Assembly: GCA_910587535.1 (NCBI GenBank)
Contig: CAJUKM010000002.1
Span: 1 to 62,785 of the forward strand
From: an uncultured Bacilli bacterium
GTDB taxonomy: Bacteria > Bacillota_I > Bacilli_A > RF39 > UBA660
DNA length: 62,785 nt
Reading direction: 5' to 3'
This document shows positions 7,220 through 39,614 of this stretch, piece after piece. The notes under the pieces were generated by a model that was not told the DNA's origin, did no database searches, and worked only from the letters and a program-made list of their open reading frames with translations. A program made the translations under genes and the position numbers. The first letter of the stretch is position 1, and every line of letters begins with the position of its first letter.

Positions 7220-8893
7220 ATGGTAATGGTGACATCGGATAATAATAAAACATCAGATTCTTCAAACTCTTTTTTAAAATACTTAAATGGATTTATTATG
7301 GCAATAGTGCATTTTGTAATGTATATTTGCCTAGGAGCTTACTATTGTTTCAATTATTTAATAGCAAAACCTTTTGAGACTATAATGAGTCTCGTCGTCG
7401 ATGGATATTATGCTCTTTTTAAGCCGAGAATTAATAGAAAAGATAAGGCCTTAAAAATCGAGATGAATTACGATGAGAAGGGCGAAAGGATAGATGAAAC
7501 TCGAGATAAAAAAGACATCTATTCTAAGATGAAAGCCAACCAAAAAATAATAAAAGAACAAAAGAAAAAAACGGGAAAAGAGATCGACGCTAAGACCAAA
7601 GAGAGATTAGATTTAGAGAGAGATTCTCTTTTAAAGATGATCAACGATGGACAAGAGAAGCGCTTTGAGAAGCCTCAAACTTTCAGATACAAAGCGATGA
7701 CTCCTGATGGAAAAATTGAGAAAAGTACGTTTATTGGTGTATCAAAACTGGACATTTATACGTTTTTAACTGGTGAAGGTTATAAAGTTTTCTCTATAGA
7801 GACATCCGATTGGATAAACTTTGTATATGGTCAATCGTTGACATTATATAAAAAACTTTCGACAAAAGATTTGATATTCTTCATAACACAACTTTCTACT
7901 TATATAAAATCTGGTATAACTCTAACAGAGGCGATGAGAATTTTATCTAAACAGTTGAAAAAGAACAAAAATCAATCCAGAATAACTCAGTCTATAGTTT
8001 ATTATCTTACGATGGGAGAATCGTTTTCAACGGCTCTTTCTAATCAAACAGGTGCTTTCCCTCCACTCGTTATCAACATGATTAAAGCTGCTGAAGCTGC
8101 CGGAAACTTGGATGAAACACTAGACGATTTGGGTCACTATTATGAAGAAATAGATGCTACAAAAAAGCAAATGATAAGCGCTATTTCTTATCCAGCTCTC
8201 GTCGGAATATTTTCGATAGTAATAATATTTTTTATAATGATAAAGATAGTCCCTCAGTTCGTCGGGATCTATGAGTCTGCCGGAGCGGAATTAAATCCCT
8301 TGACACTTTTGGTAATAAATACGAGTGGATTTCTACAGAAAAACGTCGGTTTAGTAATACTTTTAATCGGACTTGCCATCGCTGCTCTTGCCATGGCTTA
8401 TAAGAATGTCAAAGAGTTTAGAAGACAAGTGCAAATAATCACCATGAAGATTCCAGTAGTAGGAAAAATTATAATCTATAACGAACTTACGATATTCACG
8501 AAGACGTTCGCATCACTTTTAAAAAATGACGTCTTCATAACGGACTGTATCGAGATATTAAGTAAAATAACAAAAAATGAAATATATAAAGAAATAATGA
8601 TCAATACCATTTCGAATATAGCTCGAGGAGAAAAGATCAGTGAATCTTTTAAAGATCAATGGGCTATACCAGATATCGCTTATTATATGATCGTAACTGG
8701 TGAGAATACTGGTCAATTAGCATCGATGATGGCAAAGGTAAGTGCTTATTATCAAGAGCAGCACAAGACCATCATTAATTCTTTGAAAGCCATGATAGAA
8801 CCACTTTTGATCATGTTTTTAGCCGTTGTCGTCGGTGGTGTGTTGATAGCAGTTATTATACCGATGTTCAATCTATATAATACGATTGCTTGA
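7220..8893 (+). CDS. pilC: type II secretion/type IV pilus platform protein (GspF/PilC/ComGB family) with a ~150-aa N-terminal extension
   Basis: Two GspF-type repeats (...LSTYIKSGITLTEAMRIL... and ...FASLLKNDVFITDCIEIL...). The canonical PilC N-terminus FRYKAMTPDGKIEKSTF starts only at about residue 155. RBS aggag lies upstream of ATG 7220. Confidence 0.85.
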   Translation: MVMVTSDNNKTSDSSNSFLKYLNGFIMAIVHFVMYICLGAYYCFNYLIAKPFETIMSLVVDGYYALFKPRINRKDKALKIEMNYDEKGERIDETRDKKDIYSKMKANQKIIKEQKKKTGKEIDAKTKERLDLERDSLLKMINDGQEKRFEKPQTFRYKAMTPDGKIEKSTFIGVSKLDIYTFLTGEGYKVFSIETSDWINFVYGQSLTLYKKLSTKDLIFFITQLSTYIKSGITLTEAMRILSKQLKKNKNQSRITQSIVYYLTMGESFSTALSNQTGAFPPLVINMIKAAEAAGNLDETLDDLGHYYEEIDATKKQMISAISYPALVGIFSIVIIFFIMIKIVPQFVGIYESAGAELNPLTLLVINTSGFLQKNVGLVILLIGLAIAALAMAYKNVKEFRRQVQIITMKIPVVGKIIIYNELTIFTKTFASLLKNDVFITDCIEILSKITKNEIYKEIMINTISNIARGEKISESFKDQWAIPDIAYYMIVTGENTGQLASMMAKVSAYYQEQHKTIINSLKAMIEPLLIMFLAVVVGGVLIAVIIPMFNLYNTIA

Positions 8894-8905
8894 GGAGTGG
8901 GAGAA

Positions 8906-9664
8906 ATGACTTATCTACTTATATTTGCAACAGGAGCGATATTTGCATCTTTCATCCACGTCTATGTCACGAGAACTTTAAAAAACGAATCTATCGTGAG
9001 TCCAGGGAGTCACTGTACTAATTGTAATCACTTTCTCAAATGGTACGAATTGATTCCTATATTATCGTATATAATACAGGGTGGAAGATGCAGAAAGTGT
9101 TCAGCAAAAATAGGAATAGATTCTTTAGTGATAGAGATAATTACAGGTTCAATGTTTTTACTCATATATTATGTATATGGAATAAGTTATCAAACTCTAA
9201 TCGGATTTACTATAGTTCTTACGACTGTCTCTATTTTTTTAAGCGATTTTAAAGAGATGGTAATATTAGATAGTACTCTAGTCGTTGGAACCTTCGTCTA
9301 TTATCTACTCATATATCTAGACTTGGGAGTACGTAAGGGACTATATAGAAGTTTTTTATACGGAATCTTTGCTTTCGTCTTGATGTTCGTAGTTAAAATA
9401 TTAGGAGATGCAATATTTAAAAGGGAGTCTCTGGGTGGAGGAGATATAAAATTTGCTTTTTTAATGGGATCTATACTTCCTTATAATCTATTTTTGATCT
9501 CCCTTGTCATAGGTTCTTTTGCTGCTTTTCCTTATGCCCTATACATATCGGTGACTAAGAAAACTAACGAACTTGCATTTGGACCATTTCTGGCAATAGG
9601 GTTGTATATAACGTTTTTGTTTAGAAGTCAAATTTTGAATTTTCTCGAATTATTAATCAGTTAA
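8906..9664 (+). CDS. pilD: prepilin peptidase (A24 family, PilD/ComC)
   Basis: Zn-finger-like CTNC...CRKC N-terminal region. GGGDIKF aspartyl-protease motif. Polytopic. RBS gaggag 8 nt before ATG 8906 (the track starts at GTG 8897). Confidence 0.9.
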   Translation: MTYLLIFATGAIFASFIHVYVTRTLKNESIVSPGSHCTNCNHFLKWYELIPILSYIIQGGRCRKCSAKIGIDSLVIEIITGSMFLLIYYVYGISYQTLIGFTIVLTTVSIFLSDFKEMVILDSTLVVGTFVYYLLIYLDLGVRKGLYRSFLYGIFAFVLMFVVKILGDAIFKRESLGGGDIKFAFLMGSILPYNLFLISLVIGSFAAFPYALYISVTKKTNELAFGPFLAIGLYITFLFRSQILNFLELLIS

Positions 9665-11593: not shown

Positions 11594-11620
11594 AGAGATC
11601 GCATTTACGATCTTCTTTGT
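11594..11620 (+). terminator. probable terminator after tcdA
   Basis: Stem agatcg (11596-11601) / cgatct (11608-11613), followed by a T-rich tract. Confidence 0.4.
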
Positions 11621-11790: not shown

Positions 11791-13341
11791 ATGAGCGATA
11801 AAAATAATAGAAGAAAGATATTTGTTTTAGGACTGTGTGCAATTACCATAGTGTTAGCAAGTACTATAGGGACATATGCCTACTTTATGACTAATTTAGG
11901 TAGAGAAGAAAAACAAGAATTGACAGTGACAACAGGAAAACTAGCTTTAGTATTCGAGGACAATTCAGATGGTATAAATGCAGCTCTTTCGTTGGGTGAA
12001 AGTGTAACTAAAGAATTTAAGATTAGAAACACTGGAACACAGGATGTCACCACTAATATGTTATTTAGCGAAATGATAAATACTTACATGGAAGAATCTT
12101 TATCATACAGATTGGAGTATAAAACTTCAGTAGATGGAGAATGGTCTAATGTCGAAACGTCAAATAACAATGTTCCTCAATCTAGGAAGTCAGCAGAAAA
12201 GAATTTAGCTACAAATTTGAATATTCCAGCAGGTGTAACATACTACTATAAACTGACTATTACATTTAACGACTTAGATATTAATCAGAACGTTGATATA
12301 GATGCAATATTTGCAAGTAAATTTAAAATAGGAGATGCAATAACACCATCAAAAGAGACACTAGATTACCTAGAAGTAGTAGCCAATAAAACAACACCAA
12401 ATTTTGTAGAGCCAGCAATGACAGATGAAGGAGTTTTTGCATTAGAGGATGATTATGGAACAAGTTATTACTATCGAGGAGCAGTGACAAATAACTACGT
12501 TAAATTCGCGGGATTCTACTGGAGAATCATCAGAATAAATGGAGATGGTAGTTTAAGGATCATATATGATGGAACACAAGGATATGCGAATGGAGTATCA
12601 AATACAGGAAGACTAGCATACACAGGAAAAGCATTCAATGCACAGTATAATGATGCGAAATATGTCGGATGGATGTTTGGAGGAGCGCAAGGAACGGCAA
12701 GTACATCAAAGTCTCAAGCCCAAACGAATACGACTAATTCAGATATAAAGACCTTAGTAGATTCGTGGTATAAAGAGAATATAGTAGAAAAAAATCTGAG
12801 TGATAAAGTGTCAGATACGCTATTCTGTAATGATAGATCTACTCCTGGTAAAGAAGAAACAGGATTGAGTAATGATACGGGATTGGGTTATGGAAGAAAT
12901 GTAACTGCTTATGGAGCAATAGCAAGAACAAATCGGTGGAATACAGATCTAAGTAAGGTGAACCCGATATTCACATGTCCACAAAAGAATGATGCATTTA
13001 CTGTTAGTGATGAGAATAAAGGAAATGGTGATTTAACATACCCAGTAGGTTTGATCACAGCAGATGAAATATTAGCAGCCGGAAGTGGAAAGTATTATGC
13101 AACAGCAACCTCAAGTGGTTATCTATATAAAGGATCATGGTATTGGTCGTTATCGCCTTACTATATCAACGGTAGTATTGCAGTTGTATTTAATTCATCC
13201 GGCCGTATTGGAGGCATGGCTGTCTATGAGGTTACGGGTGCTGTTGCTCCAGTAATAAACCTAAAGCCAGAATATGTAAAAACCATGATAGGTGATGGAA
13301 CTATCAATAATCCTTATAGAGATATAAACGATATTTTATAG
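11791..13341 (+). CDS. secreted protein, paralog 1: SipW/TasA-type signal peptide + TasA/camelysin-like N-domain + conserved two-Cys C-terminal domain
   Basis: The N-terminus ...ASTIGTYAYFMTN then TVTTGKLAL...SLGESVTKEFKIRNTG mirrors TasA/CalY (GTWAAFND ... SGTLDL ... LKPGDKLTKDFQFENNG). The C-domain DDYGTSYYYRGAVTNNYVKFAGFYWRIIRINGDGS...FCNDR...FTCPQKNDAF...GLITADE...WYWSLSP...VAPVINLK is shared by all four paralogs. Confidence 0.8.
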   Translation: MSDKNNRRKIFVLGLCAITIVLASTIGTYAYFMTNLGREEKQELTVTTGKLALVFEDNSDGINAALSLGESVTKEFKIRNTGTQDVTTNMLFSEMINTYMEESLSYRLEYKTSVDGEWSNVETSNNNVPQSRKSAEKNLATNLNIPAGVTYYYKLTITFNDLDINQNVDIDAIFASKFKIGDAITPSKETLDYLEVVANKTTPNFVEPAMTDEGVFALEDDYGTSYYYRGAVTNNYVKFAGFYWRIIRINGDGSLRIIYDGTQGYANGVSNTGRLAYTGKAFNAQYNDAKYVGWMFGGAQGTASTSKSQAQTNTTNSDIKTLVDSWYKENIVEKNLSDKVSDTLFCNDRSTPGKEETGLSNDTGLGYGRNVTAYGAIARTNRWNTDLSKVNPIFTCPQKNDAFTVSDENKGNGDLTYPVGLITADEILAAGSGKYYATATSSGYLYKGSWYWSLSPYYINGSIAVVFNSSGRIGGMAVYEVTGAVAPVINLKPEYVKTMIGDGTINNPYRDINDIL

Positions 13342-13356
13342 AAAAGTGTGATAAAT

Positions 13357-15153
13357 ATGAATGAAAAAAGAAAGAACATGATAATCCTTACAGTATGTGC
13401 AATAACTTTGATGCTCGCAAGTATCTTAGGAACATACGCTTACTTCATGTCCAATATAAATAACGATAGCAGACAGGAAGCAGAAGTCGATACTGGTACT
13501 ATGAGACTCAGATTTGCCGACAATGATGAAGGCATAAATGCGAAGTTGATGTTAGGTGAATCCATAACTAAGAAGTTCACTTTAGAAAACACTGGAACAT
13601 TAGATGCCACAGTATCTATAGAGTGGTTAGACATGATAAACACTTACACACTAGGTAGTCTTACGTACACACTCGAATATTCAGAGACAGAAGATGGAGA
13701 CTATATTGAACTAGTGTCTTCAACTAATGTTCCAACATCTAGTTCAGAGTTCACAAGTACATTAGTGCCGGACATAACTATTCCAGTAGGAAAAACTTAC
13801 TTCTACAATTTAGTGATAACCTTGAATAATTTGAATGACGTAGATCAAACAGAAGACTTGAATGCAAGCTTCTCTACAAAGTTCATAGTAAGTCAACCAT
13901 CTACAAATAGGAAATATACTTTAACTATAGATCCAAACGGGGGAACTATAGACGGATCAAGTGAGATTCAGACTTTAAGTATGAACGTAGGAAATACTTA
14001 TGAATTAGGAACGAACGATACTACAGGGTATAGAAAATTTGAAGGATGGACTATTTCGGGTTACGATAGTTCAATAGAGGATACTACAATAACTATAGGA
14101 AAATCTAACGTAAAAATAGTAGCAAAATATGACAGTTTCAAGATACAAGAAGCGATTAAAGCTTTAGAGAATGGAGAAACTCCAAAGTATGTGAATACAT
14201 CAATGCCAACCTTTGTAAATACAGCGACGACAGATGAAGGAGTCTTCGCGATGGAAGATGACTACGGAACGAGTTACTACTATCGAGGAGCAGTGGAGAA
14301 CAACTACGTCAAGTTTGGAGACTTCTATTGGAGAATTATTAGAATCAATGGAGATGGAAGTGTAAGAATTCAATATGACGGAGCTAAAGGATATGAAAAT
14401 ACTGTAGAAAATGCAGATAGATTAATATATACTAATAGACTTTTTAATACTCAATTTTATGATGCGAAGTATGTCGGATGGATGTTTGGAGGAGCACAAG
14501 GACAAGCAAGTACTTCAAAAGCACAGGGGCAAACAAACGAAACAGATTCAGAGATGAAGATATTAGTAGATTCATGGTATAAGACAAACATTGTAGATAA
14601 AAATTTAGGGGATAAAGTTTCGGACACATTATTCTGTAACGATAGAACAACACCAGGAAGAGAGGCAACAGGCTGGAATCTTGATACAGGAATAGGATAT
14701 GGAAATAATTATACCTCTTTTGGAGCAACTGTTAGGGCAAATGGGTATAATGTCGAATCGATAAAAGCAAAGCCTATGTTTAAGTGTCCACAAAAAAACG
14801 ATGCATTCACCGTGAGTGATGAAGTATTAGGAAACGGTGACTTGACCTATCCAGTAGGTCTGATTACAGCGGATGAAATAGTTGCAGCGGGAAGCGGAGA
14901 ATTTCATACACCAAATACTAATTATTACTTGTATAAAGGGGTATGGTATTGGTCATTCTCACCATATGCATTTAGTGGAAATGGCTCTTATATGTTTGTC
15001 GTGAATGGCTCTGGTATAGGTCGTCTAGACGCAGCTTATGTGAATGATACGCGTGGAGCAGTCGCCCCAGTTATCAATCTGAAGGCTGATTACGTGGAAA
15101 CTCTTATAGGAGATGGAACTATCAATAATCCTTATAGAGAGGTTATTAAATAA
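13357..15153 (+). CDS. secreted protein, paralog 2 (same family, with an inserted Listeria-Bacteroides/Flg_new-type repeat)
   Basis: Same signal (SILGTYAYFMSN) and C-domain as paralog 1. It has an extra ~75-aa segment YTLTIDPNGGTIDG...GYRKFEGWTISG...VAKYD. Starts 16 nt after paralog 1 (the track starts at GTG 13348). Confidence 0.8.
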   Translation: MNEKRKNMIILTVCAITLMLASILGTYAYFMSNINNDSRQEAEVDTGTMRLRFADNDEGINAKLMLGESITKKFTLENTGTLDATVSIEWLDMINTYTLGSLTYTLEYSETEDGDYIELVSSTNVPTSSSEFTSTLVPDITIPVGKTYFYNLVITLNNLNDVDQTEDLNASFSTKFIVSQPSTNRKYTLTIDPNGGTIDGSSEIQTLSMNVGNTYELGTNDTTGYRKFEGWTISGYDSSIEDTTITIGKSNVKIVAKYDSFKIQEAIKALENGETPKYVNTSMPTFVNTATTDEGVFAMEDDYGTSYYYRGAVENNYVKFGDFYWRIIRINGDGSVRIQYDGAKGYENTVENADRLIYTNRLFNTQFYDAKYVGWMFGGAQGQASTSKAQGQTNETDSEMKILVDSWYKTNIVDKNLGDKVSDTLFCNDRTTPGREATGWNLDTGIGYGNNYTSFGATVRANGYNVESIKAKPMFKCPQKNDAFTVSDEVLGNGDLTYPVGLITADEIVAAGSGEFHTPNTNYYLYKGVWYWSFSPYAFSGNGSYMFVVNGSGIGRLDAAYVNDTRGAVAPVINLKADYVETLIGDGTINNPYREVIK

Positions 15154-15162
15154 TATGAGTTA

Positions 15163-15187
15163 AAATGCCTAGATTGGCATTTTTTAT
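15163..15187 (+). terminator. rho-independent terminator after the paralog pair
   Basis: Stem aaatgcc (15163-15169) / ggcattt (15176-15182), followed by a T-run. Confidence 0.7.
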
Positions 15188-15216
15188 TTGACTTTGATCT
15201 CAGTTATTTTTATAAT
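15188..15216 (+). promoter_or_regulatory. consensus sigma-A promoter for the amidoligase-like gene
   Basis: TTGACT (15188-15193), exactly 17 nt, TATAAT (15211-15216). Confidence 0.65.
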
Positions 15217-15243
15217 ATGTTTCTATCAAAAGGGGATGAGAAG

Positions 15244-16803
15244 ATGGAATTGCCATCTATAAATTTGGAAGAACAAAAAATGCTAATATCGTGTCTTGAC
15301 GAAGGATGTTTAGCTGGCTCGGATATTACGTTCATTTTGACGTTGCTAGTCAATGAAGAATTATTTTTAACACATTTAGTACAACATCAAAATGTCGTTA
15401 CTGTTGAGATTTTAGATAGACTTAAAACTTTGGACGATTTAAAACTAGAGAGTCTTCTGAATTCAGTAGGCTCTCGCACATTAATATCTTATATAATAGC
15501 ATCTTTTAAAGACAAAAATAAGCAAATACAACACATCGAATCTTATTCTAGCGACGAAGAGATGTTATTCAACATAGGAATGAATTTAGATTGTTCTGAG
15601 ATGATAATTAAAATTATCTCGATGATATATTCTAGAAACGAATATAGGGTTACCCTAGCTAGTATGCTTACAGAAGAAGATATATGTAGATACTTAAACT
15701 CTGATGTTTCTTTAGCGAGGAAATGTTTTATGTTGCGCTATTGCCCATACGACGAATTAAAAATAAGATTTTTAGATGAAAACAGATCTATTATTCCTAG
15801 ATACCAAATAGAGGGATTAATAAAATCTATAAGTTCTGAAAGTATTAGATCGCAAGCGATAGAAATAGAAAAAGATTTAATAGATAATGATGAATCTGAA
15901 AAGAATTACGATTCAGAATTTCATATATTTGATGGATTAAAAGACGCTCTTCCTCATGAGCTTGCACACGGTTTGGAAATAGAGATGACTGGTTGTATAG
16001 CAAAAAGTCTCGCTAAAAAAGGTGGCTATATCTTCGGATTTGAAATCAAAGATGAAATTACAGTCGACGATGGAATCGAATTTACTTCTGACAAAATGTA
16101 TTTTAGAAGAAAAGATTTAGAGAGCATATACTCGGTGTGTCGATATGCTAAAAATAGTGGACTAAAACCTAATTATCAGTGCTCAAATCATTTACATTTT
16201 GATGCAAGCTTTCTAGATTGTTATGAAGCGTGGTATTATTTTTTTTACATATATACTAAAGTAGAAAGAATATTATTCATAATTGCCAATAGAGAAGGTA
16301 CCACGCCTAGACCTTTTATATATAAGTATGCGACTCCTTTTAGTAGAAGATATTCTGAAATTATAGAAAAGATCGACCAGTCGCCTAAAGTTGACGATTT
16401 TATACGCAGTGTAAAGAAAATCTCTAATAAAAAGGCAGATGCACTTAACGTCTTGAACATTGGAAGTAAAGAAAAAAATACTGTCGAGATAAGAATACCC
16501 AACGGAGATGATGATGCAGATATAATGATACAAAACATTTTATTGTTCGGTAATATGTTTTTTACAGCAAGAAAATTATCGCGTTTACCTATGAGCCCGG
16601 ATAAGTATGAGCTTTTACACGCTCTAGACGAGGCGAAAGAGGAACAGGAAGTGTTAGAGATCTTTTTGAAGATGATATTTAGAGAAGAAGCTAACAGAGA
16701 GATTTTTAGAAAAAGATATTTTGCTAATCGAGATCTGTTCGAAAATTGTCAAACGGGAATTAAAGAAGATTTTAAATCTTTTAGATTAAATCCGAGATCT
16801 TAA
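15244..16803 (+). CDS. two-domain protein: helical N-terminal region + putative amidoligase (GS-like, Amidoligase_2-type) C-terminal domain
   Basis: The C-terminal half shows the amidoligase pattern: GLEIEMTG ... DDGIEFTS ... CSNHLHFD ... ALNVLNIGSKEKNTVEIRIPNG. ATG 15244 with RBS aaagggga is preferred because ATG 15217 abuts the -10 box. Confidence 0.55.
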   Translation: MELPSINLEEQKMLISCLDEGCLAGSDITFILTLLVNEELFLTHLVQHQNVVTVEILDRLKTLDDLKLESLLNSVGSRTLISYIIASFKDKNKQIQHIESYSSDEEMLFNIGMNLDCSEMIIKIISMIYSRNEYRVTLASMLTEEDICRYLNSDVSLARKCFMLRYCPYDELKIRFLDENRSIIPRYQIEGLIKSISSESIRSQAIEIEKDLIDNDESEKNYDSEFHIFDGLKDALPHELAHGLEIEMTGCIAKSLAKKGGYIFGFEIKDEITVDDGIEFTSDKMYFRRKDLESIYSVCRYAKNSGLKPNYQCSNHLHFDASFLDCYEAWYYFFYIYTKVERILFIIANREGTTPRPFIYKYATPFSRRYSEIIEKIDQSPKVDDFIRSVKKISNKKADALNVLNIGSKEKNTVEIRIPNGDDDADIMIQNILLFGNMFFTARKLSRLPMSPDKYELLHALDEAKEEQEVLEIFLKMIFREEANREIFRKRYFANRDLFENCQTGIKEDFKSFRLNPRS

Positions 16804-17011: not shown

Positions 17012-17692
17012 ATGTTTGAAGAAAGTTTGAGTAAAAGTAGGGTTGAGACTAGAATTAATACTGCTGTTAAACCAGAGCACCTATATCTCATAGTTAAAAG
17101 AGCAGCAGATATCATTTTATCTGGTATAGGGTTGATATTGGTGGCACCTATATTGTTGATTGTAGCAGTTTTAATCAAGTTGGATTCTAAGGGACCTGTT
17201 TTTCTCGATCAAAAGAGAATAGGTAAAGACGGTAAGATGTTTAGAATATATAAATTTAGATCCATGGTCGATCATGCTGAAGATGTGCTTATGGAACTCA
17301 TGGAAAACGATCCCGCTATTAAAGAAGAATATACTACTAAGAAAAAATTGGAAAATGACCCTCGTGTCACTAAAATAGGTAAATTCATCAGAAAAACTTC
17401 TATTGATGAGCTGCCTCAGCTCATCAATATCTTCTTAGGAGATATGAGTTTGGTAGGACCTAGACCTTATTTAGCTATGGAAATCGAAGACATGGGACTT
17501 ACTTATTTTACAATTATTAAGATGACTCCAGGACTTACTGGACCATGGCAAGTAGCTGGTCGCAGTAACATAGGATTTAGAGAAAGATGTGCAATCGACT
17601 GCCGTTATTACAAGGATCGTTCTTTAAAAGATGACTTTAAAATCATACTTAAAACTTTTAAAGTCGTTCTCGGTAGAAAAGGTGCAAAATAA
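17012..17692 (+). CDS. undecaprenyl-phosphate sugar phosphotransferase (bacterial sugar transferase, EpsL/WbaP C-terminal type), initiating enzyme
   Basis: IVKRAADIILSGIGLILVAPILL...KGPVFLDQKRIGKDGKMFRIYKFRSM...DELPQLINIFLGDMSLVGPRP. Confidence 0.85.
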   Translation: MFEESLSKSRVETRINTAVKPEHLYLIVKRAADIILSGIGLILVAPILLIVAVLIKLDSKGPVFLDQKRIGKDGKMFRIYKFRSMVDHAEDVLMELMENDPAIKEEYTTKKKLENDPRVTKIGKFIRKTSIDELPQLINIFLGDMSLVGPRPYLAMEIEDMGLTYFTIIKMTPGLTGPWQVAGRSNIGFRERCAIDCRYYKDRSLKDDFKIILKTFKVVLGRKGAK

Positions 17693-17825
17693 AAAGAATA
17701 AAAGATACTTTAGATGCTCATTAGTTTAAATTGACTATTAGGGTATAGAACTATTATAATATGACTATATGCATGATAAGTATTTTCGTGTGTATAGTCT
17801 TTTTGTTTAGAAGGGGATTAGTATT

Positions 17826-18614
17826 ATGAGAGAAGAAGATGTAAAACAAGAAAAAATTTTGGGAGATAACGAGCGAATTTGTATACTCGATACGACGATA
17901 GATGTGTTAACTGCTAGTGAAACAGTATCTCTAGTAGAGAAGTATGTAAAGACGAAAACTCCGCTTCATCTGATGGGAGTAAATGCCGACAAAATAAACG
18001 AAGTTGGACAGAATGAACTCATGAAGAAAATAGTAAATAGTTGTGGAGTTATCAATGCTGATGGAGCTTCGGTGGTTCTCGCTAGCAAATATTTAAAGAA
18101 ACCACTTCCAGAGCGAGTTGCAGGAATAGATTTGATGCAAGACTTAGTCGTTTTAAGTGAACAAAAGAATTATTCCATATATCTTTTAGGTGCAAAGCAG
18201 GAAGTCGTAGAAAAGACTAGAGATGTTCTTTTAGAAAGGCATCCTAAACTAAATGTAAAAGGAATACATAATGGTTATTTTAAAGAAGAAAATTGGAGTG
18301 AGATCGCTTTAGAGTTAAAAGAAGTAAACCCAGATTTTGTGTTCGTAGGTATCACTTCACCTATCAAAGAGTATCTGATAGAATTTTTGCAAAACGAAGG
18401 TTTAAACTGCGTATTTATGGGAGTTGGAGGGAGTTTTGATGTCATATCGGGAAACATACCTAGAGCACCAAAATGGATGCAAAAGATGAATTTAGAGTGG
18501 TTATTTAGAGTAATGCAAGAACCTAAAAGACTTTTTAAGAGATATTTTTTAGGTAATAGTAAATTCATAACTAGCGTTTTTAAAGAAAAACATAGAAGGG
18601 GACCTAAAGCGTGA
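17826..18614 (+). CDS. WecB/TagA/CpsF-family glycosyltransferase (ManNAc-transferase-like)
   Basis: About 260 aa with the ...VNADKINE...INADGASVVLASKYL...ERVAGIDL... pattern typical of TagA-like enzymes. Confidence 0.8.
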   Translation: MREEDVKQEKILGDNERICILDTTIDVLTASETVSLVEKYVKTKTPLHLMGVNADKINEVGQNELMKKIVNSCGVINADGASVVLASKYLKKPLPERVAGIDLMQDLVVLSEQKNYSIYLLGAKQEVVEKTRDVLLERHPKLNVKGIHNGYFKEENWSEIALELKEVNPDFVFVGITSPIKEYLIEFLQNEGLNCVFMGVGGSFDVISGNIPRAPKWMQKMNLEWLFRVMQEPKRLFKRYFLGNSKFITSVFKEKHRRGPKA

Positions 18615-19675
18615 GAGTTTTACACATTTCCCGTACAATGGGACAGGGTGGTGCCGAAAAAGTCGTGTACCAGATATGCAAAGAAGCTCATGAAGAGGCG
18701 ATGTTTGTTGCGTCTACTGGTGGAGCACACGTCGAAGAGTTAGAGAAAAATGGCATTAAGCATTTCGTCATACCAGATATCGACAGCAAAAGTCCAATAG
18801 TAATTTTAAGAACATTTTTAATACTTAAGAAAGTTATCAAAAGTGAAAATATAGACGTAGTACATTCTCATCATAGAATGGCAGCATTTTATAGTAGAGT
18901 TTTAAATATTTTTAATAGAAGTTTTAAAAGAGTTTATACAGCTCATAACGTATTTAATAATAAAAGAGGATTACTCAGATATGCTCTTAAAGGTTCTAAG
19001 GTCGTCGCCGTAGGTAATGGAGTAAAAAGCAATCTAACTGGATTTTATGGGATTGATGAAAATAGAGTTGATGTCATTTATAACTCTGTCGAAAGGCCAG
19101 AAAGAATAGATACGCCAAACGATCAGTTTATTCGCGATAAAAAAGATAAAATATTCGTTGCAACAGTTGGAAGAATAAGTGAACAAAAGGGAATGGATGT
19201 GTTCGTCTCAGCTCTTTCGTCAATAATTAAGAGAGACAGAAATGTCTATGGGGTAATCATCGGCGATGGCGAAGATAGAGAGAAGTTAGAACAACAAGTA
19301 GCAAACCTCGAAATACAGGACAACATAATATTTTTAGGTTTTAGAAAAGATATATTTGCACTGATAAAAGCGATGGACTTTGTAGTACTGTCTTCTAGAT
19401 GGGAAGGATTTCCTCTTACGCCGATCGAAACTTTTTCAGTAGGCAAAACTATTATTGTTTCCGATATAGAAGGAAATAATGAAATCGTCGATGGGACAAA
19501 CGGATTATTGTTTGAGAAAGATAACGTCGAAGAACTTAAAGTCAGAATTGAAGAATTATGTTACGATGTGGAAAAGAGAGAAAATTTAGAAAAAGAGGCT
19601 TTGAAGAGCTTTTCTCAAAAATACAGTTATGAAGTATTTATAGAGAATTATCAAAAACTATATAAAAATTTATAG
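18611..19675 (+). CDS. glycosyltransferase family 4 (GT-B)
   Basis: MRVLHISRTMGQGGAEKVV N-terminus. C-terminal ...SSRWEGFPLTPIETFSVGKTIIVSDIEGNNEIV (EX7E-like). GTGA overlap with the upstream gene. Confidence 0.85.
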   Translation: MRVLHISRTMGQGGAEKVVYQICKEAHEEAMFVASTGGAHVEELEKNGIKHFVIPDIDSKSPIVILRTFLILKKVIKSENIDVVHSHHRMAAFYSRVLNIFNRSFKRVYTAHNVFNNKRGLLRYALKGSKVVAVGNGVKSNLTGFYGIDENRVDVIYNSVERPERIDTPNDQFIRDKKDKIFVATVGRISEQKGMDVFVSALSSIIKRDRNVYGVIIGDGEDREKLEQQVANLEIQDNIIFLGFRKDIFALIKAMDFVVLSSRWEGFPLTPIETFSVGKTIIVSDIEGNNEIVDGTNGLLFEKDNVEELKVRIEELCYDVEKRENLEKEALKSFSQKYSYEVFIENYQKLYKNL

Positions 19676-19689
19676 CGAGGGTGATATAC

Positions 19690-20400
19690 ATGATACCTAA
19701 AAAAATACATTATTGTTGGTTCGGTGGAAAACCTCTTCCTCCATTAGCTAAAAAATGTATCGATTCTTGGAAAAAAAAGTGCCCAGATTACGAAATCGTC
19801 GAATGGAATGAGACAAATTTTGATATCGAGTGCAGTAAATTCGTCAAAGATGCTTATGCAAATGGGGCATGGGCATTCGTCTCGGATTATGCTCGGTTGA
19901 AAATTATATATGAAAACGGTGGAATCTATCTAGATACCGATGTCGAAGTTTTAAAAAATTTGGATCCTCTTTTAGAAGAGAAGTGCTACTTTGCCGTTCA
20001 GCAAGACGGGAGTTTAGTTGCTACTGGTCTAGGATTCGGTGGAGAAAAGGGTTCTATAATATTAAAAGAGATGTTGGATTTATACGACAATACTGTATTC
20101 AATAACGATAAAAGAGAAGATATCGCTTGTCCCATTTTGAATACTTTAGTGCTCAAGAAGCACGGGTATGAATATAGTGAAGAAAAAATTTATTTAGAAG
20201 ATATCGACACGACGATTTTTCCACCGAAATATTTCGATCCGATAGCACCCGGTGATAGTAAAGATTTGAGCTGTGCAGAGACTTTTTCTATCCACCATTA
20301 CAGTGCTACTTGGACCCCAAAGAAGACGAGGCTTAAAAGAACTATAGTGAATATACTTGGGCAAAAAAACGTCAATAAGATTAAAAAAATATTTAAATGA
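19690..20400 (+). CDS. glycosyltransferase (GT32 / Gly_transf_sug, DXD type)
   Basis: IPKKIHYCWFGGKPLP...SDYARLKIIYENGGIYLDTDVE. RBS gagggtga lies before ATG 19690. Confidence 0.75.
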   Translation: MIPKKIHYCWFGGKPLPPLAKKCIDSWKKKCPDYEIVEWNETNFDIECSKFVKDAYANGAWAFVSDYARLKIIYENGGIYLDTDVEVLKNLDPLLEEKCYFAVQQDGSLVATGLGFGGEKGSIILKEMLDLYDNTVFNNDKREDIACPILNTLVLKKHGYEYSEEKIYLEDIDTTIFPPKYFDPIAPGDSKDLSCAETFSIHHYSATWTPKKTRLKRTIVNILGQKNVNKIKKIFK

Positions 20401-20408
20401 GGTATGGT

Positions 20409-21650
20409 ATGAAAAAATTTTTTGTTCAATTAGTTATCATATTCGTTTTATTTAATAACGTATTCTTTAATATACTTCCATTACCTTCGTTTTTCAGCTA
20501 TTGGGATGAACTGTTGGAATTATCAATAATTGCAGTGAGTATCATCGTTCTTCTGAAAAATAAAACGCCGATTAAAAAAAATTATTTCTTTATGTATCTA
20601 GTAATCGCCGTGATGATATCGATAGGGTTACTGGGTAATTTCATATTCGAGTATGTATCAGGATATTCACATATCATCAAGGATGTTGTGGGATTTTGTA
20701 AATTTCCTTTAGCGTTCATATTCTTAAAGAATTTAGATTACGATGAGAAGATATCTGAATACATAACAGATGGGTTTATGAAAGTCATAAGACTAATAGT
20801 CATCGCGATTTTCTTTTTTGGAATAATTAGCATATTTAAAGATATCGGAATGTCCCAAAATGAGATCAGAAACGGAATTAGACCATATATGTTCATGTTC
20901 TCACATCCAACTTACTTGGTACTATCGTCTCTTTTCATGTTGGTCTTAATAGATTCTTATAGTTTCAAAAAGGACAAAAATCAAATCGTATATGAACTGA
21001 TGCTGATTTTAATCATACTTTTGACAATGAGAACAAAGGGAGTTGTAATCGCCGCTTTATATCTTTTCATCCGTTACTTTGGTAAAGCCTTTAAAAAGTA
21101 TAAAGTACTGTATTATATAGGTGGCGCTGGTATCGCTTTGACAGCGGCTTTAGATAAGATATTGTTGTATGTTTCTTATAGTTCTTCTCCTAGAGAAGCA
21201 CTGTATAAGGGTTCATTGACTCTTTTAAAAACATGTTTCCCTTTTGGAAGTGGATTTGCATCTTTTGCATCTCATATATCTGCAGTATCTAATTCTTTAG
21301 TTTATGATTTCATCCATATACCATATTATTGGGTCGAAAGTGGAAACGAACTATCGGTATTAGGAGATGCTGGATTGGCGTATTATATAGGTCAATTCGG
21401 AATAGTGGGATCTGTACTTTTCGTAATGCTCATAATTAATATCTATAAAATTTCCATCCAAAAAGTCGACAACAAGCTACCGATTAACATATTTTGGCTA
21501 TACGTTTTAGTAGCATTGACGACAGAGTCGATTCTCATAAATTCTGGTATAGAATTAGTTTTGATGTTACTTTTGATATGCGGATTAAATAAGAAAAGTG
21601 GTGAGATATGTGAAGAAAGTTCTGATCATCAGCGAGAAGTACTCGCCTAA
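20409..21650 (+). CDS. O-antigen polymerase/ligase-like polytopic membrane protein (Wzy candidate)
   Basis: About 10 TM segments with a larger loop near ...MRTKGVVIAALYLF.... The position between GT genes and the flippase fits a Wzy. Confidence 0.6.
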   Translation: MKKFFVQLVIIFVLFNNVFFNILPLPSFFSYWDELLELSIIAVSIIVLLKNKTPIKKNYFFMYLVIAVMISIGLLGNFIFEYVSGYSHIIKDVVGFCKFPLAFIFLKNLDYDEKISEYITDGFMKVIRLIVIAIFFFGIISIFKDIGMSQNEIRNGIRPYMFMFSHPTYLVLSSLFMLVLIDSYSFKKDKNQIVYELMLILIILLTMRTKGVVIAALYLFIRYFGKAFKKYKVLYYIGGAGIALTAALDKILLYVSYSSSPREALYKGSLTLLKTCFPFGSGFASFASHISAVSNSLVYDFIHIPYYWVESGNELSVLGDAGLAYYIGQFGIVGSVLFVMLIINIYKISIQKVDNKLPINIFWLYVLVALTTESILINSGIELVLMLLLICGLNKKSGEICEESSDHQREVLA

Positions 21651-22740
21651 TTTAGGAGATGCAGTCATATTCGATCAAGTATATAGCATCTTAAAGGACA
21701 AATTCGAGATCGAATCGTTAGATCTTTCGGGCAGGAAGCAGATCGATAGTAGTGAAAAGTTTCACAATGCGTCGAACTATAAAAAGAGTTTTAAAAGTAT
21801 TATTAAAAAAGTGTTTAAAATGTTTGGAATTTTCGTCTATGGTAATACATTAAAAGAGACGATAGAAAATTTTAAAAAAGCGTTTAAAACTCTAGTTATA
21901 GAGTTCGAGCCCGATTGCATACTTTTTGCAGGGGGACAACTTTTCATGGATAGCTTTTTAGAACAGATTTTATATGTCGTCCTTTATGCAGAAAAAAAGG
22001 GCATAAAGGTTATCTTTAATGCCTGTGGATGTTCTAATATCGATAGTCTATATGAAAAGAAAAGTTTAAAAAGAATTGTACACAGTGAAGCTACTAAATA
22101 TATTTCCATGAGAGATCACTACGAGGTGATTAAAAATTACGAAGGAAATATAAAAAAAGTATACGATACATTCGATACAGCTCTTTTGTCTCATAAAATA
22201 TACGACGTCCCTCTTTTAAAAAAGAAGGAATTCGGAGTGGGCATCATGCTAGATAGAAACATATCTCGCGAAGTACAGCGGACATTTTGGAGAAATGTGA
22301 TATCCTTTTTGGAAAGTCAAAAGAAAGATTATGAGATATTTTGTAACGGTAGTATCGAAGATTACGATTTTTCTTTAGAGATTCTCAAAAGTTTAGAAAT
22401 TGATAACGAGAGAATTGCTAAGCAGCCGACTTCTTCTAAAGAATTGGTCGAGTGTATTAATAGATACGAGAAGACGATATCGATGAGATTACATTCTTTG
22501 ATAATCGCCTATTCGTACGATATACCAACGATAGCGATTTCTTGGAATCCCAAGGTAGATGAGTTCTATAGAAAAATAGGTAAAAGTGAATGCTGCCTAA
22601 AATTGACAGATCATTTTGAAGATGTAAAAAATGCTATTACGAGATTGGACGCAAGTTTCTTAAATCGCAATATCAAAGATGAAATTGAAGCATCGATCGA
22701 AAAAAACATTTCATCGATCTTAAAAATAATCGAAGATTAG
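21610..22740 (+). CDS. polysaccharide pyruvyl transferase family protein (CsaB/WcaK-like)
   Basis: N-terminal ...NLGDAVI... and C-terminal ...ISMRLHSLIIAYSYDIPTIAISWNPKVDEF..., typical of PS_pyruv_trans. GTG 21610 after ggtga (the track starts at 21598). Confidence 0.7.
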   Translation: MKKVLIISEKYSPNLGDAVIFDQVYSILKDKFEIESLDLSGRKQIDSSEKFHNASNYKKSFKSIIKKVFKMFGIFVYGNTLKETIENFKKAFKTLVIEFEPDCILFAGGQLFMDSFLEQILYVVLYAEKKGIKVIFNACGCSNIDSLYEKKSLKRIVHSEATKYISMRDHYEVIKNYEGNIKKVYDTFDTALLSHKIYDVPLLKKKEFGVGIMLDRNISREVQRTFWRNVISFLESQKKDYEIFCNGSIEDYDFSLEILKSLEIDNERIAKQPTSSKELVECINRYEKTISMRLHSLIIAYSYDIPTIAISWNPKVDEFYRKIGKSECCLKLTDHFEDVKNAITRLDASFLNRNIKDEIEASIEKNISSILKIIED

Positions 22741-22757
22741 AGAGGATATACTACTAA

Positions 22758-24146
22758 ATGAGCAAGAAAAAAGATTTAGTGAAAAACACATTTATTATAT
22801 TATTAGGTAAAGTGTGCACACAATTTTTATCTTTTTTTCTCATGCCATTATATACGAATGTCTTAAGTTCTTCAGAGTATGGAACAGTCGATCTCATCAT
22901 AACCTATGTAGCTTTATTTGTACCAGTTATAACTTTACAGATAGAGATGGGACTGTTTAGAAATCTGATCGACTTTAGAGAAGATGAGAAAGCAAGGGTG
23001 AGGGTAGTCACTTCGGGACTGAGAAGATTATGCTTGCAGCTCATCGCTTTCGTAGTTATATTTACTGTTTTAAATTTATTCGTAAAAATACCTCATGGAA
23101 TTTATATACTTTTGTGTATAATATTTACGATGACCTCAAACGTCTTGTTGCAAATTGCCAGAGGTAATGGAGATAACGTCGGCTATTCTTGTGCAAGTGT
23201 AATAGCTGGAGTTTCAACTGTTCTTTTAAACATATTATTTTTAATCTTCTTGAAATTTAAAATAGAAGGGATGCTTTTATCTTCAGCACTAGCTAATCTG
23301 ATTGCGACGATATATCTATTTTTCAGATGTAAATTATATAAATTGATAGATATAAAAGCAAGAGACAAAAAAACAGAGAGAGAACTTTTAAAGTATTCTT
23401 TACCTCTTGTGCCAAACGGGTTAATTTGGTGGATAATAAACGTATCCGATCGAACGATCATAACTATCTTTTTAGGAATGGCGGTAAACGGCATATATGC
23501 TGTATCGAATAAGTTTTCTAACATATTGATCCAAGTCTTCAACGTTTTCAATCTATCTTGGACTGAGTCGGCATCTATCCATATTAAAGATGACGATAGA
23601 GATGCATTCTTCAGCGATATATTCGATGTCATAATAAAACTTTTTTCATCGGTTTGTATACTGTTGATATTGTCTATGCCTCTTATTTTTGACATTTTAG
23701 TGGGTACCGAATTTAGAGAAGCGTATCAATACATACCTCTTTTATTAATCGGCATGTTGTTCAACATAGTTGTGTCGTTTATAGGTAGTATCTATGTATC
23801 TTTAAAATTGACCAAACAGGTCGCAGAGACATCTTTTTACTCGGGTTTACTAAATATTTTGATAAATGTACTATTTGTCAAGCTTATCGGAATATATGCC
23901 GCAATCATAAGCACGATAATCGCATTCTTGTCGATGAGTATATATAGATATATAGATGTCAAGAAATATATAAATTTAAAGATTAATGTTAGAAATGTCG
24001 CAACGATAATAGTTTTATTTATAATAAGTGCAGGAATTTATTATATAGGATATAATGTACTTACTATTTGTCTCAGTCTGATATTAATATTTACTATCGC
24101 ATATCTCAATAGAAATGTATTTGCTTTTCTTTCAAAAAAGCGATAA
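22758..24146 (+). CDS. oligosaccharide flippase (Wzx, MOP superfamily)
   Basis: 462 aa, about 12-14 TM segments. N-terminal ...KNTFIILLGKVCTQFLSFFLMPLYTNVLSSSEYG... is typical of the polysaccharide biosynthesis protein family. Confidence 0.8.
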   Translation: MSKKKDLVKNTFIILLGKVCTQFLSFFLMPLYTNVLSSSEYGTVDLIITYVALFVPVITLQIEMGLFRNLIDFREDEKARVRVVTSGLRRLCLQLIAFVVIFTVLNLFVKIPHGIYILLCIIFTMTSNVLLQIARGNGDNVGYSCASVIAGVSTVLLNILFLIFLKFKIEGMLLSSALANLIATIYLFFRCKLYKLIDIKARDKKTERELLKYSLPLVPNGLIWWIINVSDRTIITIFLGMAVNGIYAVSNKFSNILIQVFNVFNLSWTESASIHIKDDDRDAFFSDIFDVIIKLFSSVCILLILSMPLIFDILVGTEFREAYQYIPLLLIGMLFNIVVSFIGSIYVSLKLTKQVAETSFYSGLLNILINVLFVKLIGIYAAIISTIIAFLSMSIYRYIDVKKYINLKINVRNVATIIVLFIISAGIYYIGYNVLTICLSLILIFTIAYLNRNVFAFLSKKR

Positions 24147-24178
24147 AAAAATGAATTAAGAAAAAAGGTGATTATAAA

Positions 24179-26651: not shown

Positions 26652-26734
26652 AGTCTCTTTTTTTATTATTAGATCCTTGATTTTTATATGTACTTATGGT
26701 AAAGTATTTACAGTATAATAAAGGGGAGTAGAGT

Positions 26735-28084: not shown

Positions 28085-28085
28085 A

Positions 28086-37397: not shown

Positions 37398-37871
37398 ATG
37401 AGTAAAAAAATGAATAAAAAAGGTTTCACTTTGATAGAGTTGTTGGCAGTTATCGTCGTATTGGCGCTCATATTAGTACTAGCAGTGCCATCTGTTTTGA
37501 ATACGATGAATTCGGCACAGAAGAAATCTTTCCAAATGTATGGAGAAAAGATTTTGAGATCTGCTATGGAATTATATGAATCGCAAAGAATTTTGGGAGA
37601 TACTGCTATAGGTTCTAAAAAATATAATGGTAAAATTTGTTATACTTTTACCGATTTAGGTATTAGCTCTAGCGGAAGTTATAAAGGATTCGTTACAGTT
37701 ACACCTTCTTCATCTGTCAGTACGGCAACAGGATATAACGTGTATTTAACAGATGGAAAGTACGCTTATAACGGTACTACATCTGATGATGTAATGAACA
37801 GTATCGACGAAATCAAATCCGATGATACTACTTTGTCGACAGTAGGTGGATTAACAGAGTCTTGTAGATAA
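37398..37871 (+). CDS. type IV pilin / ComGC-like prepilin
   Basis: Class III signal MSKKMNKKG|FTLIELLAVIVVLALILVLAVPSV (G-1, F+1, E+5). 157 aa. Confidence 0.85.
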   Translation: MSKKMNKKGFTLIELLAVIVVLALILVLAVPSVLNTMNSAQKKSFQMYGEKILRSAMELYESQRILGDTAIGSKKYNGKICYTFTDLGISSSGSYKGFVTVTPSSSVSTATGYNVYLTDGKYAYNGTTSDDVMNSIDEIKSDDTTLSTVGGLTESCR

Positions 37872-39586: not shown

Positions 39587-39614
39587 TTATTTAGCATAGT
39601 AAGGGATGATATTG

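Follow-up and report, generated by a model that had tools for sequence, protein, structure and literature searches.

Fibre-forming proteins of the TasA family (TasA, CalY, BsaA and the archaeal AbpA; PF12389, Peptidase_M73 or camelysin) are biofilm-matrix subunits that polymerise by donor-strand exchange, in which, as described for TasA, BsaA and AbpA, the N-terminal strand of one subunit inserts into the next subunit. The donor strand of TasA comprises residues 28-38, with F29 at its second position (PMC9674648). Known members of the family are single-domain proteins of approximately 200-260 aa, encoded by one to four genes per genome. A second point of comparison is the IgA protease of Thomasclavelia ramosa (IgAse/ThomasA, Q9AES2), residues 31-321 of which (PDB 9qa6) are annotated as DUF6273; this N-terminal domain has been described as an enlarged C-type-lectin-like/DUF6273 domain and is dispensable for the activity of that enzyme (PMC12237041, PMC12402451). 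Pfam DUF6273 (PF19789) additionally includes targets of diversity-generating retroelements (DGRs), namely receptor-binding proteins of gut phages ('tentaclins', Faecalibacterium prophages), where it constitutes a retroelement-diversified receptor-binding domain with the DGR variable regions at the C-terminus.

The DNA analysed here (the window) is a stretch of 62,785 nt from an uncultured gut Bacilli bacterium (contig CAJUKM010000002.1, assembly GCA_910587535.1). Four ORFs to which a sequence-only reading had assigned one common architecture are all present, each on the plus strand. Copy 1 (11791-13341; 516 aa) encodes a signal, a TasA-like beta-sandwich, a linker helix and a C-terminal domain (C-domain), and is the first gene of a two-gene unit; copy 2 (13357-15153; 598 aa), the second gene of that unit, begins 15 nt past copy 1 and displays the same architecture with an additional, inserted repeat-like segment. 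Copy 3 (39615-41213; 532 aa) combines a divergent N-terminal module (N-module) with a conserved C-domain, while copy 4 (56180-57745; 521 aa) is the nearest relative of copy 1. The mechanical ORF list offers earlier starts for copy 2 (GTG at 13348) and copy 3 (ATG at 39606); the ATG at 39615 is preceded by an AAGGG ribosome-binding site at good spacing, and the ATG at 13357 is consistent with a gene predicted at 598 aa in a close relative. When all ORFs of at least 60 aa in the window were searched with a profile, exactly these four family members were identified; together they occupy 6513 nt (10.4%) of the window. Consensus scans, the sole source for these elements, placed terminator-like hairpins on the plus strand at 11595-11614, 3' of an upstream ThiF-family gene and forming the upstream boundary of the two-gene unit, and at 15162-15183, 9 nt past the copy 2 stop codon and followed by a promoter-like site for the next gene (15188-15216, plus strand; 11 of 12 matches). 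Unlike tasA, the window genes do not lie in an operon of the tapA-sipW-tasA type and are dispersed among housekeeping genes as single or tandem copies. The interpretation that we favour, and consider somewhat on the probable side, is that their products are exported, belong to a greatly expanded family of surface or matrix proteins and join a TasA-like fibre or surface module to a ligand-binding, lectin-like head.

Each of the four N-termini carries three to six K/R residues, a hydrophobic run of approximately 17-20 aa and then GTYAYF (TTYGFF in copy 3), as the sequence-only reading had noted, with small residues at positions -3 and -1 (T and A in copy 1) in every case, directly past the hydrophobic core. 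In copy 1 the predicted signal peptide spans residues 1-30 (11791-11880, plus strand) and consists of a basic n-region, a hydrophobic core and a GTYA end, with a predicted cut before YF; across 55 homologues F32 never varies, and Y29 and A30 are conserved at 90% or more. These signals resemble those of the TasA family in ending in G-T-aromatic-A followed by aromatic-F, and in that the second residue of the predicted mature chain is hydrophobic and conserved (F32, corresponding to F29 in TasA). Judged from these residues, the signal is probably cleaved at GTYA↓YF (TTYG↓FF in copy 3). The proposal that it mirrors a SipW-cognate signal was not borne out by the corresponding model (TIGR04088, cut-off 19 bits), against which copies 1, 2 and 4 scored 10.9, 11.0 and 9.8 bits, respectively, and copy 3 gave no match; the likeness of GTYAYF to the SipW-cognate motif is one seen by eye only.

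The sub-threshold TIGR04088 scores would also fit a different reading, in which the four proteins are monomeric surface lectins held in the membrane by an uncleaved signal-anchor, with the beta-sandwich as a stalk and the C-domain as a head, and form no fibre. The AF2 model of copy 1 (pLDDT 81) is in line with such an anchor, since residues 2-36 are modelled as a single unbroken helix, as is the lack of any alternative anchor: no LPXTG-like motif or C-terminal hydrophobic tail was found in any of the four proteins, which stop a few residues past the C-domain. Furthermore, a motif scan and Pfam scans of the large ORFs identified no signal peptidase I gene in the window, in keeping with the earlier statement that a SipW-type enzyme is absent from it, and oligomers of the Clostridium perfringens BsaA are reportedly membrane-anchored (PMC11580942). 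Conversely, the small residues straight after the hydrophobic core, the strong conservation of Y-A-x-F at the position where TasA and CalY are cleaved, and the homology of the N-module to polymerising proteins argue against an anchored lectin, which we regard as unlikely, albeit as an alternative to be taken seriously. Genes positive for the archaeal-type signal peptidase I model (TIGR02228, cut-off 51.85 bits) were detected in two family-carrying relatives (L013, 90.2 bits; L043, 78.4 bits). SipW-like genes of relatives are not clearly linked to the family genes, occurring in 2 of 78 family loci against a roughly estimated 0.5 expected by chance. A dedicated SipW is not strictly required of TasA-family members, as the archaeal AbpA uses a generic signal peptidase.

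Downstream of the predicted signal of copy 1 lies a TasA/CalY-like beta-sandwich of approximately 150 aa (11881-12345, plus strand), which includes a putative N-terminal donor strand (YFMTNLGREEKQELTV...). The AF2 model places strands at residues 41-181, a helix at 186-193 and the C-domain at 212-516; the low pLDDT of residues 21-50 (44-56) is as expected of a mobile N-terminal strand. A search of the PDB by Foldseek with the full-length model returned a TasA fibre subunit (8aur_A) as the best match (E 1.5e-4, probability 1.00), at a low TM-score (0.31 on the target) and an rmsd of 10.9 Å. Pfam Peptidase_M73 (PF12389; cut-off 22.5 bits) was matched by copies 2 and 4 (24.8 and 26.5 bits) and, at 0.1 bit under the cut-off, by copy 1 (22.4 bits, residues 20-94), the match being to the signal and first strands (model positions 12-86 of 196 only); many close homologues carry precomputed PF12389. 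The TasA-like N-domain suggested from the sequence is supported by the M73 matches and by the top PDB match; the partial model coverage and the low TM-score make the case weaker than the sequence-only reading implied. Copy 3 gave no Peptidase_M73 match in the Pfam search; its N-module, which has two additional cysteines, reached 27.8 bits when compared with an N-module profile from which copy 3 had been left out and is, going by this score, a distant homologue of the same TasA-like module. The N-module is homologous to the TasA family.

In copy 2 the N- and C-domains are separated by an insertion (13915-14133, plus strand) with a weak match to Flg_new_2 (Listeria-Bacteroides/InlB B-repeat; 16.8 bits, cut-off 23.6), and clear Flg_new repeats occupy the equivalent position in the relatives P0052 and P0114. 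The window proteins differ from known TasA-family members in adding a C-terminal globular domain of approximately 300 aa, sometimes with repeats in between. That the proteins might instead be cleaved, released and non-polymerising binding proteins, which could for instance coat microbes or host glycans or antagonise competitors, is compatible with a signal that looks cleavable, with the missing anchor motifs and with the observation that the TasA monomer is soluble and stable (PMC9674648), and a repertoire of many variable-head paralogs would equally suit secreted recognition. It would, however, leave no obvious role for the TasA-like module or for the conserved strand at the N-terminus, and it sits poorly with the occurrence of the same head on type IV prepilin N-termini (see below); we consider it improbable.

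The C-domain of copy 1 (12403-13338, plus strand; residues ~205-516) shares with the other copies the motifs DDYG.SYYYRGAV.NNYVKF..FYWRIIRINGDGS, FCNDR, CPQKNDAFTVSD, GLIT.DE, YW..SP and VAPVINLK, corresponding to those quoted in the sequence-only reading, together with two conserved cysteine residues (copy 1: C346, C396), which are invariant also in a far more diverse alignment (A4). The roughly 300-aa domain of the window copies has no Pfam or NCBIfam match: the four proteins did not match DUF6273 at E values up to 1, nor did the isolated copy 1 C-domain at E values up to 0.01. Remoter homologues do match DUF6273 (P0122, 100.5 bits; P0125, 39.4 bits), as do 8 of the 25 diverse copies in A4, always in the C-terminal part of the model (positions ~114-172). 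The earlier comparison of the last part of the domain with the 'WWLRSP...VRPA' type was thereby upheld, the match of the remote copies being to the C-terminal third of the Pfam model, and no well-characterised family claims the domain, its likeness being to DUF6273 only. The two have in common the C-terminal motifs GL.T.DE, YW..SP and [VI]RPV..L, while the window domain has an N-terminal part of approximately 200 aa (YYYRG, WRIIRINGDGS, FCNDR) beyond the matched model region.

The AF2 model of the C-domain (pLDDT 80, pTM 0.86) matched the T. ramosa IgA peptidase structure 9qa6 by Foldseek (E 1.2e-4, probability 0.97, 326 columns), the sole PDB match at E ≤1e-3, with a TMq of just 0.35. As a C-domain sequence profile failed to find 9qa6, this link is purely structural; viral predicted structures gave weak matches, none at E <1e-3. 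On the basis of the predicted structure, the C-domain is assigned to the enlarged C-type-lectin-like domains of the DUF6273 kind. It resembles the IgAse domain in size, being about double an ordinary C-type-lectin-like domain, as well as in its extracellular setting within a gut Bacillota lineage. It differs from it in sequence (approximately 16% identity), in its two invariant cysteines, where IgAse has a structural zinc (Asp, His, Cys) and no tethering disulfides, and in position, since the IgAse domain is N-terminal to a metalloprotease whereas the window domain is C-terminal to a TasA-like module.

Relative to copy 1, pairwise identity amounts to 59% for copy 2, 56% for copy 3 and 73% for copy 4. 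It is unevenly distributed: comparisons between copies give 66-77% over the C-terminal ~300 aa and just 18-68% over the N-terminal ~200 aa. Synonymous divergence is deep, with 33-61% of same-amino-acid codons differing between copies, and exact nucleotide matches between copies extend to 44 nt at most. Rather than being recent duplicates, the four copies are long-separated paralogs subject to purifying selection. The most variable stretch of the C-domain (13153-13245, plus strand; copy 1 residues ~455-485) lies between YWSLSP and VAPVINLK and reaches a column entropy of 2.7-2.8 bits, against 0.3-0.6 bits in the core, among 123 paralogs; going by this variability, it is a candidate ligand-contact surface. 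It is situated close to the C-terminus of the domain, where the variable regions of phage DUF6273 map, and the gathering of variability there is common to both. Variation in the window family is between paralogs, in contrast to the retroelement-driven variation of phage DUF6273; the window yielded no reverse transcriptase.

Beyond the window, the C-domain occurs in 5539 protein clusters (50% identity), and its presence in genome contigs was confirmed for 343 stretches. The 82 loci kept were derived from seven assemblies, 80 of them from five assemblies, and related genomes contain at least 7-20 family loci each, against the one to four genes of known TasA-family members. The organisms carrying them are uncultured Bacilli from the mouse gut. 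In a set of 150 diverse cluster representatives, the C-domain is fused to the TasA-like N-module in 50 and to a type IV prepilin N-terminus (G↓FTLIE) in seven, and none combines it with an LPXTG anchor. The presence of the same head on type IV prepilin N-termini points to filament display. A further explanation holds that the four proteins are substrates or components of a nearby type IV pilus or type II secretion-like machinery, either as prepilin-like proteins or as cargo pushed by a pseudopilus. Copy 1 has genes for a T2SSF protein (7220-8893) and a prepilin peptidase (8897-9664) 2 kb upstream, copy 3 has a pilin gene 1.7 kb upstream, and precedent may be seen in the pilin-dependent secretion of BsaC from the sipW-bsaA operon, according to a preprint, and in the cargo proposal for C. 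perfringens Bsa; the N-termini also match the archaellin/pilin N-terminal model TIGR02537 weakly (13 bits, cut-off 20). On the other hand, the machinery is set apart from copy 1 by a terminator-like hairpin and three unrelated genes, none of it adjoins copy 4, and the family genes of relatives are found in many unrelated genomic contexts. The N-termini lack the prepilin glycine at -1 and glutamate at +5, and neither a class III site of the G↓FTLIE type nor a Pfam N_methyl match was found in the four copies; the pilin version is contradicted by this absent cleavage motif, and the explanation as a whole appears very improbable.

Under the favoured interpretation of surface or matrix proteins with a lectin-like head, the four proteins would be exported by the Sec pathway via a TasA/CalY-type signal peptide, and a type I signal peptidase, which may be of the archaeal/SipW type encoded by related genomes, would probably cut after GTYA (TTYG in copy 3). 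The mature chain would then open with the conserved Y-F... strand, followed by the TasA-like beta-sandwich, which a short helix or Listeria-Bacteroides repeats would connect to the head of the DUF6273 kind. Most likely, the N-module would retain the protein at the cell surface or as part of a fibre, and the C-domain would act as a binding head, for which host or microbial glycans or proteins are candidate ligands; as the paralogs vary chiefly in the N-module and in a single surface stretch of the head, they would provide a repertoire of specificities. Signal cleavage, polymerisation and ligand binding are ascribed to the four proteins by inference.

A bolder version of this proposal, which we consider possible but doubtful, is that the TasA-type donor-strand module serves as a display scaffold of general use and the paralogs co-polymerise into mixed fibres, in which each decorated subunit would carry a lectin-like head of its own specificity and stand-alone N-modules might form the shaft. 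The N-module is also found stand-alone or with repeat-only payloads, and related N-modules, whether stand-alone or otherwise fused, likewise match Peptidase_M73; no stand-alone shaft subunit was found within the window. As a working analogy, the chaperone-usher tip adhesin FimH, to which the archaeal AbpB has similarly been compared (PMC9245690), combines a strand-exchange pilin-type sandwich with a lectin-like head, as the window copies are proposed to do. There is no homology to FimH, the domain order is opposite and the setting is Gram-positive, without chaperone or usher; moreover, FimH is a single tip subunit, whereas most members of the window family bear a head.

The C-domain, present in thousands of clusters and without any Pfam model in the window copies, reveals a large gap in domain databases, and the settings in which it occurs suggest that it binds ligands on filaments or surfaces. 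TasA-type fibres have so far been known as plain single-domain matrix scaffolds, and the head-bearing architecture is new. If TasA-type subunits carry lectin-like heads in many diverged copies per genome, their assembly principle would serve adhesion or recognition as well. Should the mixed-fibre version prove true, such fibres would represent a Gram-positive, chaperone-free counterpart of adhesin-tipped pili, multivalent along the fibre, and would equip an uncultured gut lineage with a large, combinatorial repertoire for adhesion, while the head, being borne also on type IV pilins of other organisms, would constitute a widespread 'filament payload' domain. Given the mouse-gut origin of the carriers, the window proteins are candidate colonisation factors.

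The four ORFs proposed in the sequence-only reading to share one architecture are present on the plus strand at 11791-13341 (copy 1, 516 aa), 13357-15153 (copy 2, 598 aa), 39615-41213 (copy 3, 532 aa) and 56180-57745 (copy 4, 521 aa), and a profile search of all ORFs in the window identified exactly four family members, which combined occupy 10.4% of it. The start codon of copy 2 (ATG at 13357) is consistent with a near-identical relative, in which the gene is called at 598 aa, and that of copy 3 (ATG at 39615) follows a well-spaced AAGGG ribosome-binding site. Upon alignment, copies 2, 3 and 4 are 59, 56 and 73% identical to copy 1, respectively, and the C-terminal ~300 aa (the C-domain) display long runs of invariant residues common to all four. 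Where two copies specify an identical amino acid, 33-61% of the codons differ, and exact nucleotide matches reach at most 44 nt; given this high synonymous divergence and the shortness of the exact matches, neither recent duplication nor gene conversion accounts for C-domain conservation. The copies are not recent duplicates, and the C-domain is therefore kept conserved by selection.

The N-termini of all four copies carry the predicted TasA-like signal that had been read from the sequence, namely a basic segment followed by a hydrophobic core (approximately 17-20 residues) and G-T-Y-A-Y-F (T-T-Y-G-F-F in copy 3), with small residues at positions -3 and -1 of the predicted cleavage site. A lipoprotein linked through the cysteine in the signal was rejected by inspection, as the sequences leading up to it (LGLC, LTVC, LLVC) do not constitute a lipobox. 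The expected profile matches were obtained in part: Peptidase_M73 (the Pfam family of TasA, CalY and camelysin; cut-off 22.5 bits) matched copies 1, 2 and 4 with 22.4, 24.8 and 26.5 bits, respectively, thus above the cut-off for copies 2 and 4, over the signal and first strands and less than half of the model. Copy 3 had no Pfam match to this family, and with the N-terminal 60-mers as queries the SipW-cognate signal model TIGR04088 remained sub-threshold (9.8-11 bits versus a cut-off of 19), as did TIGR02537. A profile made from the N-modules with copy 3 left out gave it 27.8 bits. For copy 1, AlphaFold2 predicted (pLDDT 81, pTM 0.79) a helix (residues 2-36), an all-beta domain (41-181), a linker helix and the C-domain, and the best match of this model among solved structures was 8aur_A, the fibre subunit of TasA (E 1.5e-4, probability 1.00, TM-score low), other good matches being jelly-roll carbohydrate-binding modules and similar sandwiches. 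The assignment of a TasA-like N-domain is thus borne out by both Pfam and the top structural match, within the limits set by low TM-scores and partial coverage of the Pfam model. In TasA, the donor strand is formed by residues 28-38 of the cleaved protein, with F29 among the hydrophobic contacts (PMC9674648); similarly, the predicted mature end of the present proteins starts with Y-F, and this F is invariant in 55 homologues. Assembly would proceed by strand exchange via the TasA-type module.

Motif and Pfam scans identified no signal peptidase I within the window, in agreement with the earlier observation that a SipW-type enzyme is absent from it. If the signal were left uncleaved as an anchor, the proteins would be monomeric surface lectins, an alternative that we consider unlikely. 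Among related genomes carrying the family, signal peptidase genes at two contig loci, L013 and L043, scored above the cut-off of TIGR02228 (90.2 and 78.4 bits, respectively) and matched the SipW model below its cut-off. The L043-type gene lies in a conserved five-gene operon (L043:13263-19865; also at L083, L089, L092 and L095, in related gut Bacilli), which encodes a protein of ~670-710 aa whose N-terminus resembles S24/S26 peptidases, a protein of ~508 aa assigned to no family, a DUF2357 protein (~375 aa), an archaeal-type, SipW-like signal peptidase I of 188 aa and another protein without a family (~406 aa). At L043 a tandem pair of family genes precedes the operon by ~700 bp, with one small ORF in between, and at L095 the operon is followed by a gene for a 1069-aa von Willebrand A protein bearing the C-domain. 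SipW-like genes occur at 2 of the 78 distinct loci, which by a rough estimate is about the chance expectation, and linkage of SipW-like genes to family genes is consequently not claimed; linkage aside, the profile matches indicate that an archaeal-type signal peptidase I is present in the lineage. Archaeal AbpA is processed by a generic peptidase (PMC9245690), and a dedicated SipW is therefore not essential to the proposed model, in which the signal would be cut at GTYA↓YF.

The C-domain of copies 1-4 matched no Pfam or NCBIfam family, NCBIfam searches with the full-length proteins returned no family, and searches of the PDB by sequence with copy 1, a 55-sequence profile and a diverse C-domain profile retrieved nothing meaningful. 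When the C-domain was modelled alone (pLDDT 80, pTM 0.86), the sole significant match among solved structures was the Thomasclavelia ramosa IgA peptidase (IgAse; 9qa6; E 1.2e-4, probability 0.97, 326 aligned columns), which was also found with the full-length model. Because the PDB sequence and profile searches were empty, this link is one of structure only, the model indicating a resemblance in fold to the enzyme's N-terminal domain. Two papers from 2025 have dealt with that domain (residues 31-321), one terming it 'DUF6273' (PMC12402451) and the other assigning to it a C-type-lectin-like core in an irregular alpha/beta fold, at twice the normal size and with a structural zinc (PMC12237041); both report it to be dispensable for IgA cleavage. 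The reported resemblance of the last ~90 aa to a 'WWLRSP...VRPA' domain was also upheld, in that distant copies of the window C-domain match the C-terminal part of Pfam DUF6273 (the homologous proteins P0122 and P0125, and 8 of the 25 in a diverse alignment).

Two cysteines of the C-domain, C346 and C396 (copy 1 numbering), are invariant even at 30-40% identity. Across 123 paralogs, column entropy is 0.3-0.6 bits in the core (218-257) and rises to 2.7-2.8 bits at 459-485 (between YWSLSP and VAPVINLK), a variable stretch close to the C-terminus of the domain. In gut phages, DUF6273 constitutes a C-type-lectin-like receptor-binding domain, the C-terminal end of which is diversified by retroelements, and the variable stretch occupies a similar position. 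No reverse transcriptase was detected among the Pfam-scanned window ORFs that would point to retroelement-driven diversification, and viral predicted structures gave no match at E <1e-3, the best named ones being phage DUF6273 proteins of low probability. The lectin-like head would serve to bind a ligand.

The window is a chromosomal stretch of low GC (31-40%) and ordinary gene content, including genes for a P-type ATPase, SMC, RNase III, pyruvate:ferredoxin oxidoreductase, RecD2 and GyrA, as well as a spore-coat YlbD-like gene. Copies 1 and 2, spaced by 15 nt, make up a two-gene unit with terminator-like hairpins on either side (11595-11614 and 15162-15183), and copies 3 and 4 are each solitary among unrelated neighbours. 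The closest relatives are mouse-gut MAGs labelled 'Bacilli bacterium' (97% identity, gene order kept). As regards phase variation, upstream sequences are not conserved and no convincing inverted repeats were seen around the promoters. Directly 3' of copy 2, at 15217-16803 (+), a gene with its own strong promoter-like site (15188-15216) encodes a 528-aa protein in which an uncharacterised N-terminal part of ~280 aa precedes an Amidoligase_2 domain at the C-terminus (PF12224, E 6e-11); this gene order is also found in the closest MAGs (L001, L002). A complete-looking exopolysaccharide/capsule locus (17012-28826, +) starts 1.9 kb downstream of copy 2 and encodes a priming sugar transferase, WecG/TagA-type, GT4, DXD and pyruvyl transferases, a flippase, LytR-CpsA-Psr, a Wzz-kinase fusion and a CpsB phosphatase. 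In Bacillus biofilms, TasA-type fibres and exopolysaccharide act together. Within this locus, a 313-aa ORF (25710-26651, +) unusually pairs a VanZ-like membrane domain at residues 10-145 with a dUTPase domain at residues 186-298. Elsewhere in the window, a 958-aa ORF (48113-50989, +) has a sub-threshold Sigma70_r4 match only (~residues 387-428; 24.0 bits versus a cut-off of 24.1), and a 519-aa ORF (53800-55359, +) has no family match whatsoever.

Type IV pilus-like genes also neighbour the copies. A 557-aa T2SSF platform protein (type II secretion/type IV pilus), with an unusually long N-terminal extension of ~200 aa ahead of its first T2SSF repeat, is directly followed by a prepilin peptidase (A24) at 7220-9664 (+), and a 157-aa pilin-like gene product with an N_methyl motif is encoded at 37398-37871 (+), 1.7 kb upstream of copy 3; no gene for an assembly ATPase was noted next to them. 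The reading that the copies are tied to these genes is weak, since their signals lack the prepilin cleavage motif, which excludes identity as prepilins, and the neighbourhood is not conserved.

With the C-domain alone as query, 5539 clusters at 50% identity were retrieved (1122 at E <1e-30), and 343 stretches of the genome collection were confirmed. The 82 loci kept (78 distinct) derive from seven assemblies, five of which hold 7-20 loci each. The loci retrieved contain 124 ORFs with the C-domain, 96 of them with the N-module as well. Among 150 diverse representatives, 50 possess this N-module, 51 at least two C-domains and seven type IV prepilin N-termini (G↓FTLIE). Giant members carry up to eight or more C-domain copies alongside Ig-like, von Willebrand A, DUF285 leucine-rich and Listeria-Bacteroides repeat domains, and P0033 (857 aa) joins the N-module to two tandem C-domains. 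The N-module also occurs alone (L078:4472-5125, 218 aa, Peptidase_M73 24.1 bits) or with Listeria-Bacteroides repeats as only payload (up to 1095 aa); loci with such alternative forms also include L046:7128-10412, L053:15853-18360 and L055:3016-4668. The prepilin-type fusions (K-G↓F-T-L-I/V-E; P0137, P0151, P0203, P0246, P0249, P0259 and P0261) would be pilins bearing a ~300-aa lectin-like head. The occurrence of this head on two unrelated filament-forming N-terminal modules provides the strongest indirect argument that the C-domain may be a filament or surface payload. An LPXTG anchor was found in none of the 150 representatives, and release as a soluble binder is judged quite improbable. Several MAGs rich in the family (loci L006, L012, L013 and others; assemblies CAZKKM, CAZXXI, CAZLNI) are titled 'uncultured Muribaculaceae bacterium', and their low-GC Bacilli-like gene content suggests mislabelled records or mixed bins.

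Members in the protein collection are unnamed or termed 'hypothetical protein'. TasA-like single-domain fibres of bacteria and archaea and a survey of the BsaA family have been published, and the literature searched, limited in coverage, described neither a TasA-like module joined to a DUF6273-like head nor an expansion of this kind. The family combines a recognisable module of the TasA family with a domain from a group that is poorly understood. The best-supported interpretation is that of an exported protein in which the TasA-type module would provide attachment or polymerisation and the large lectin-like head would provide binding, the paralogs representing a repertoire of binding specificities.
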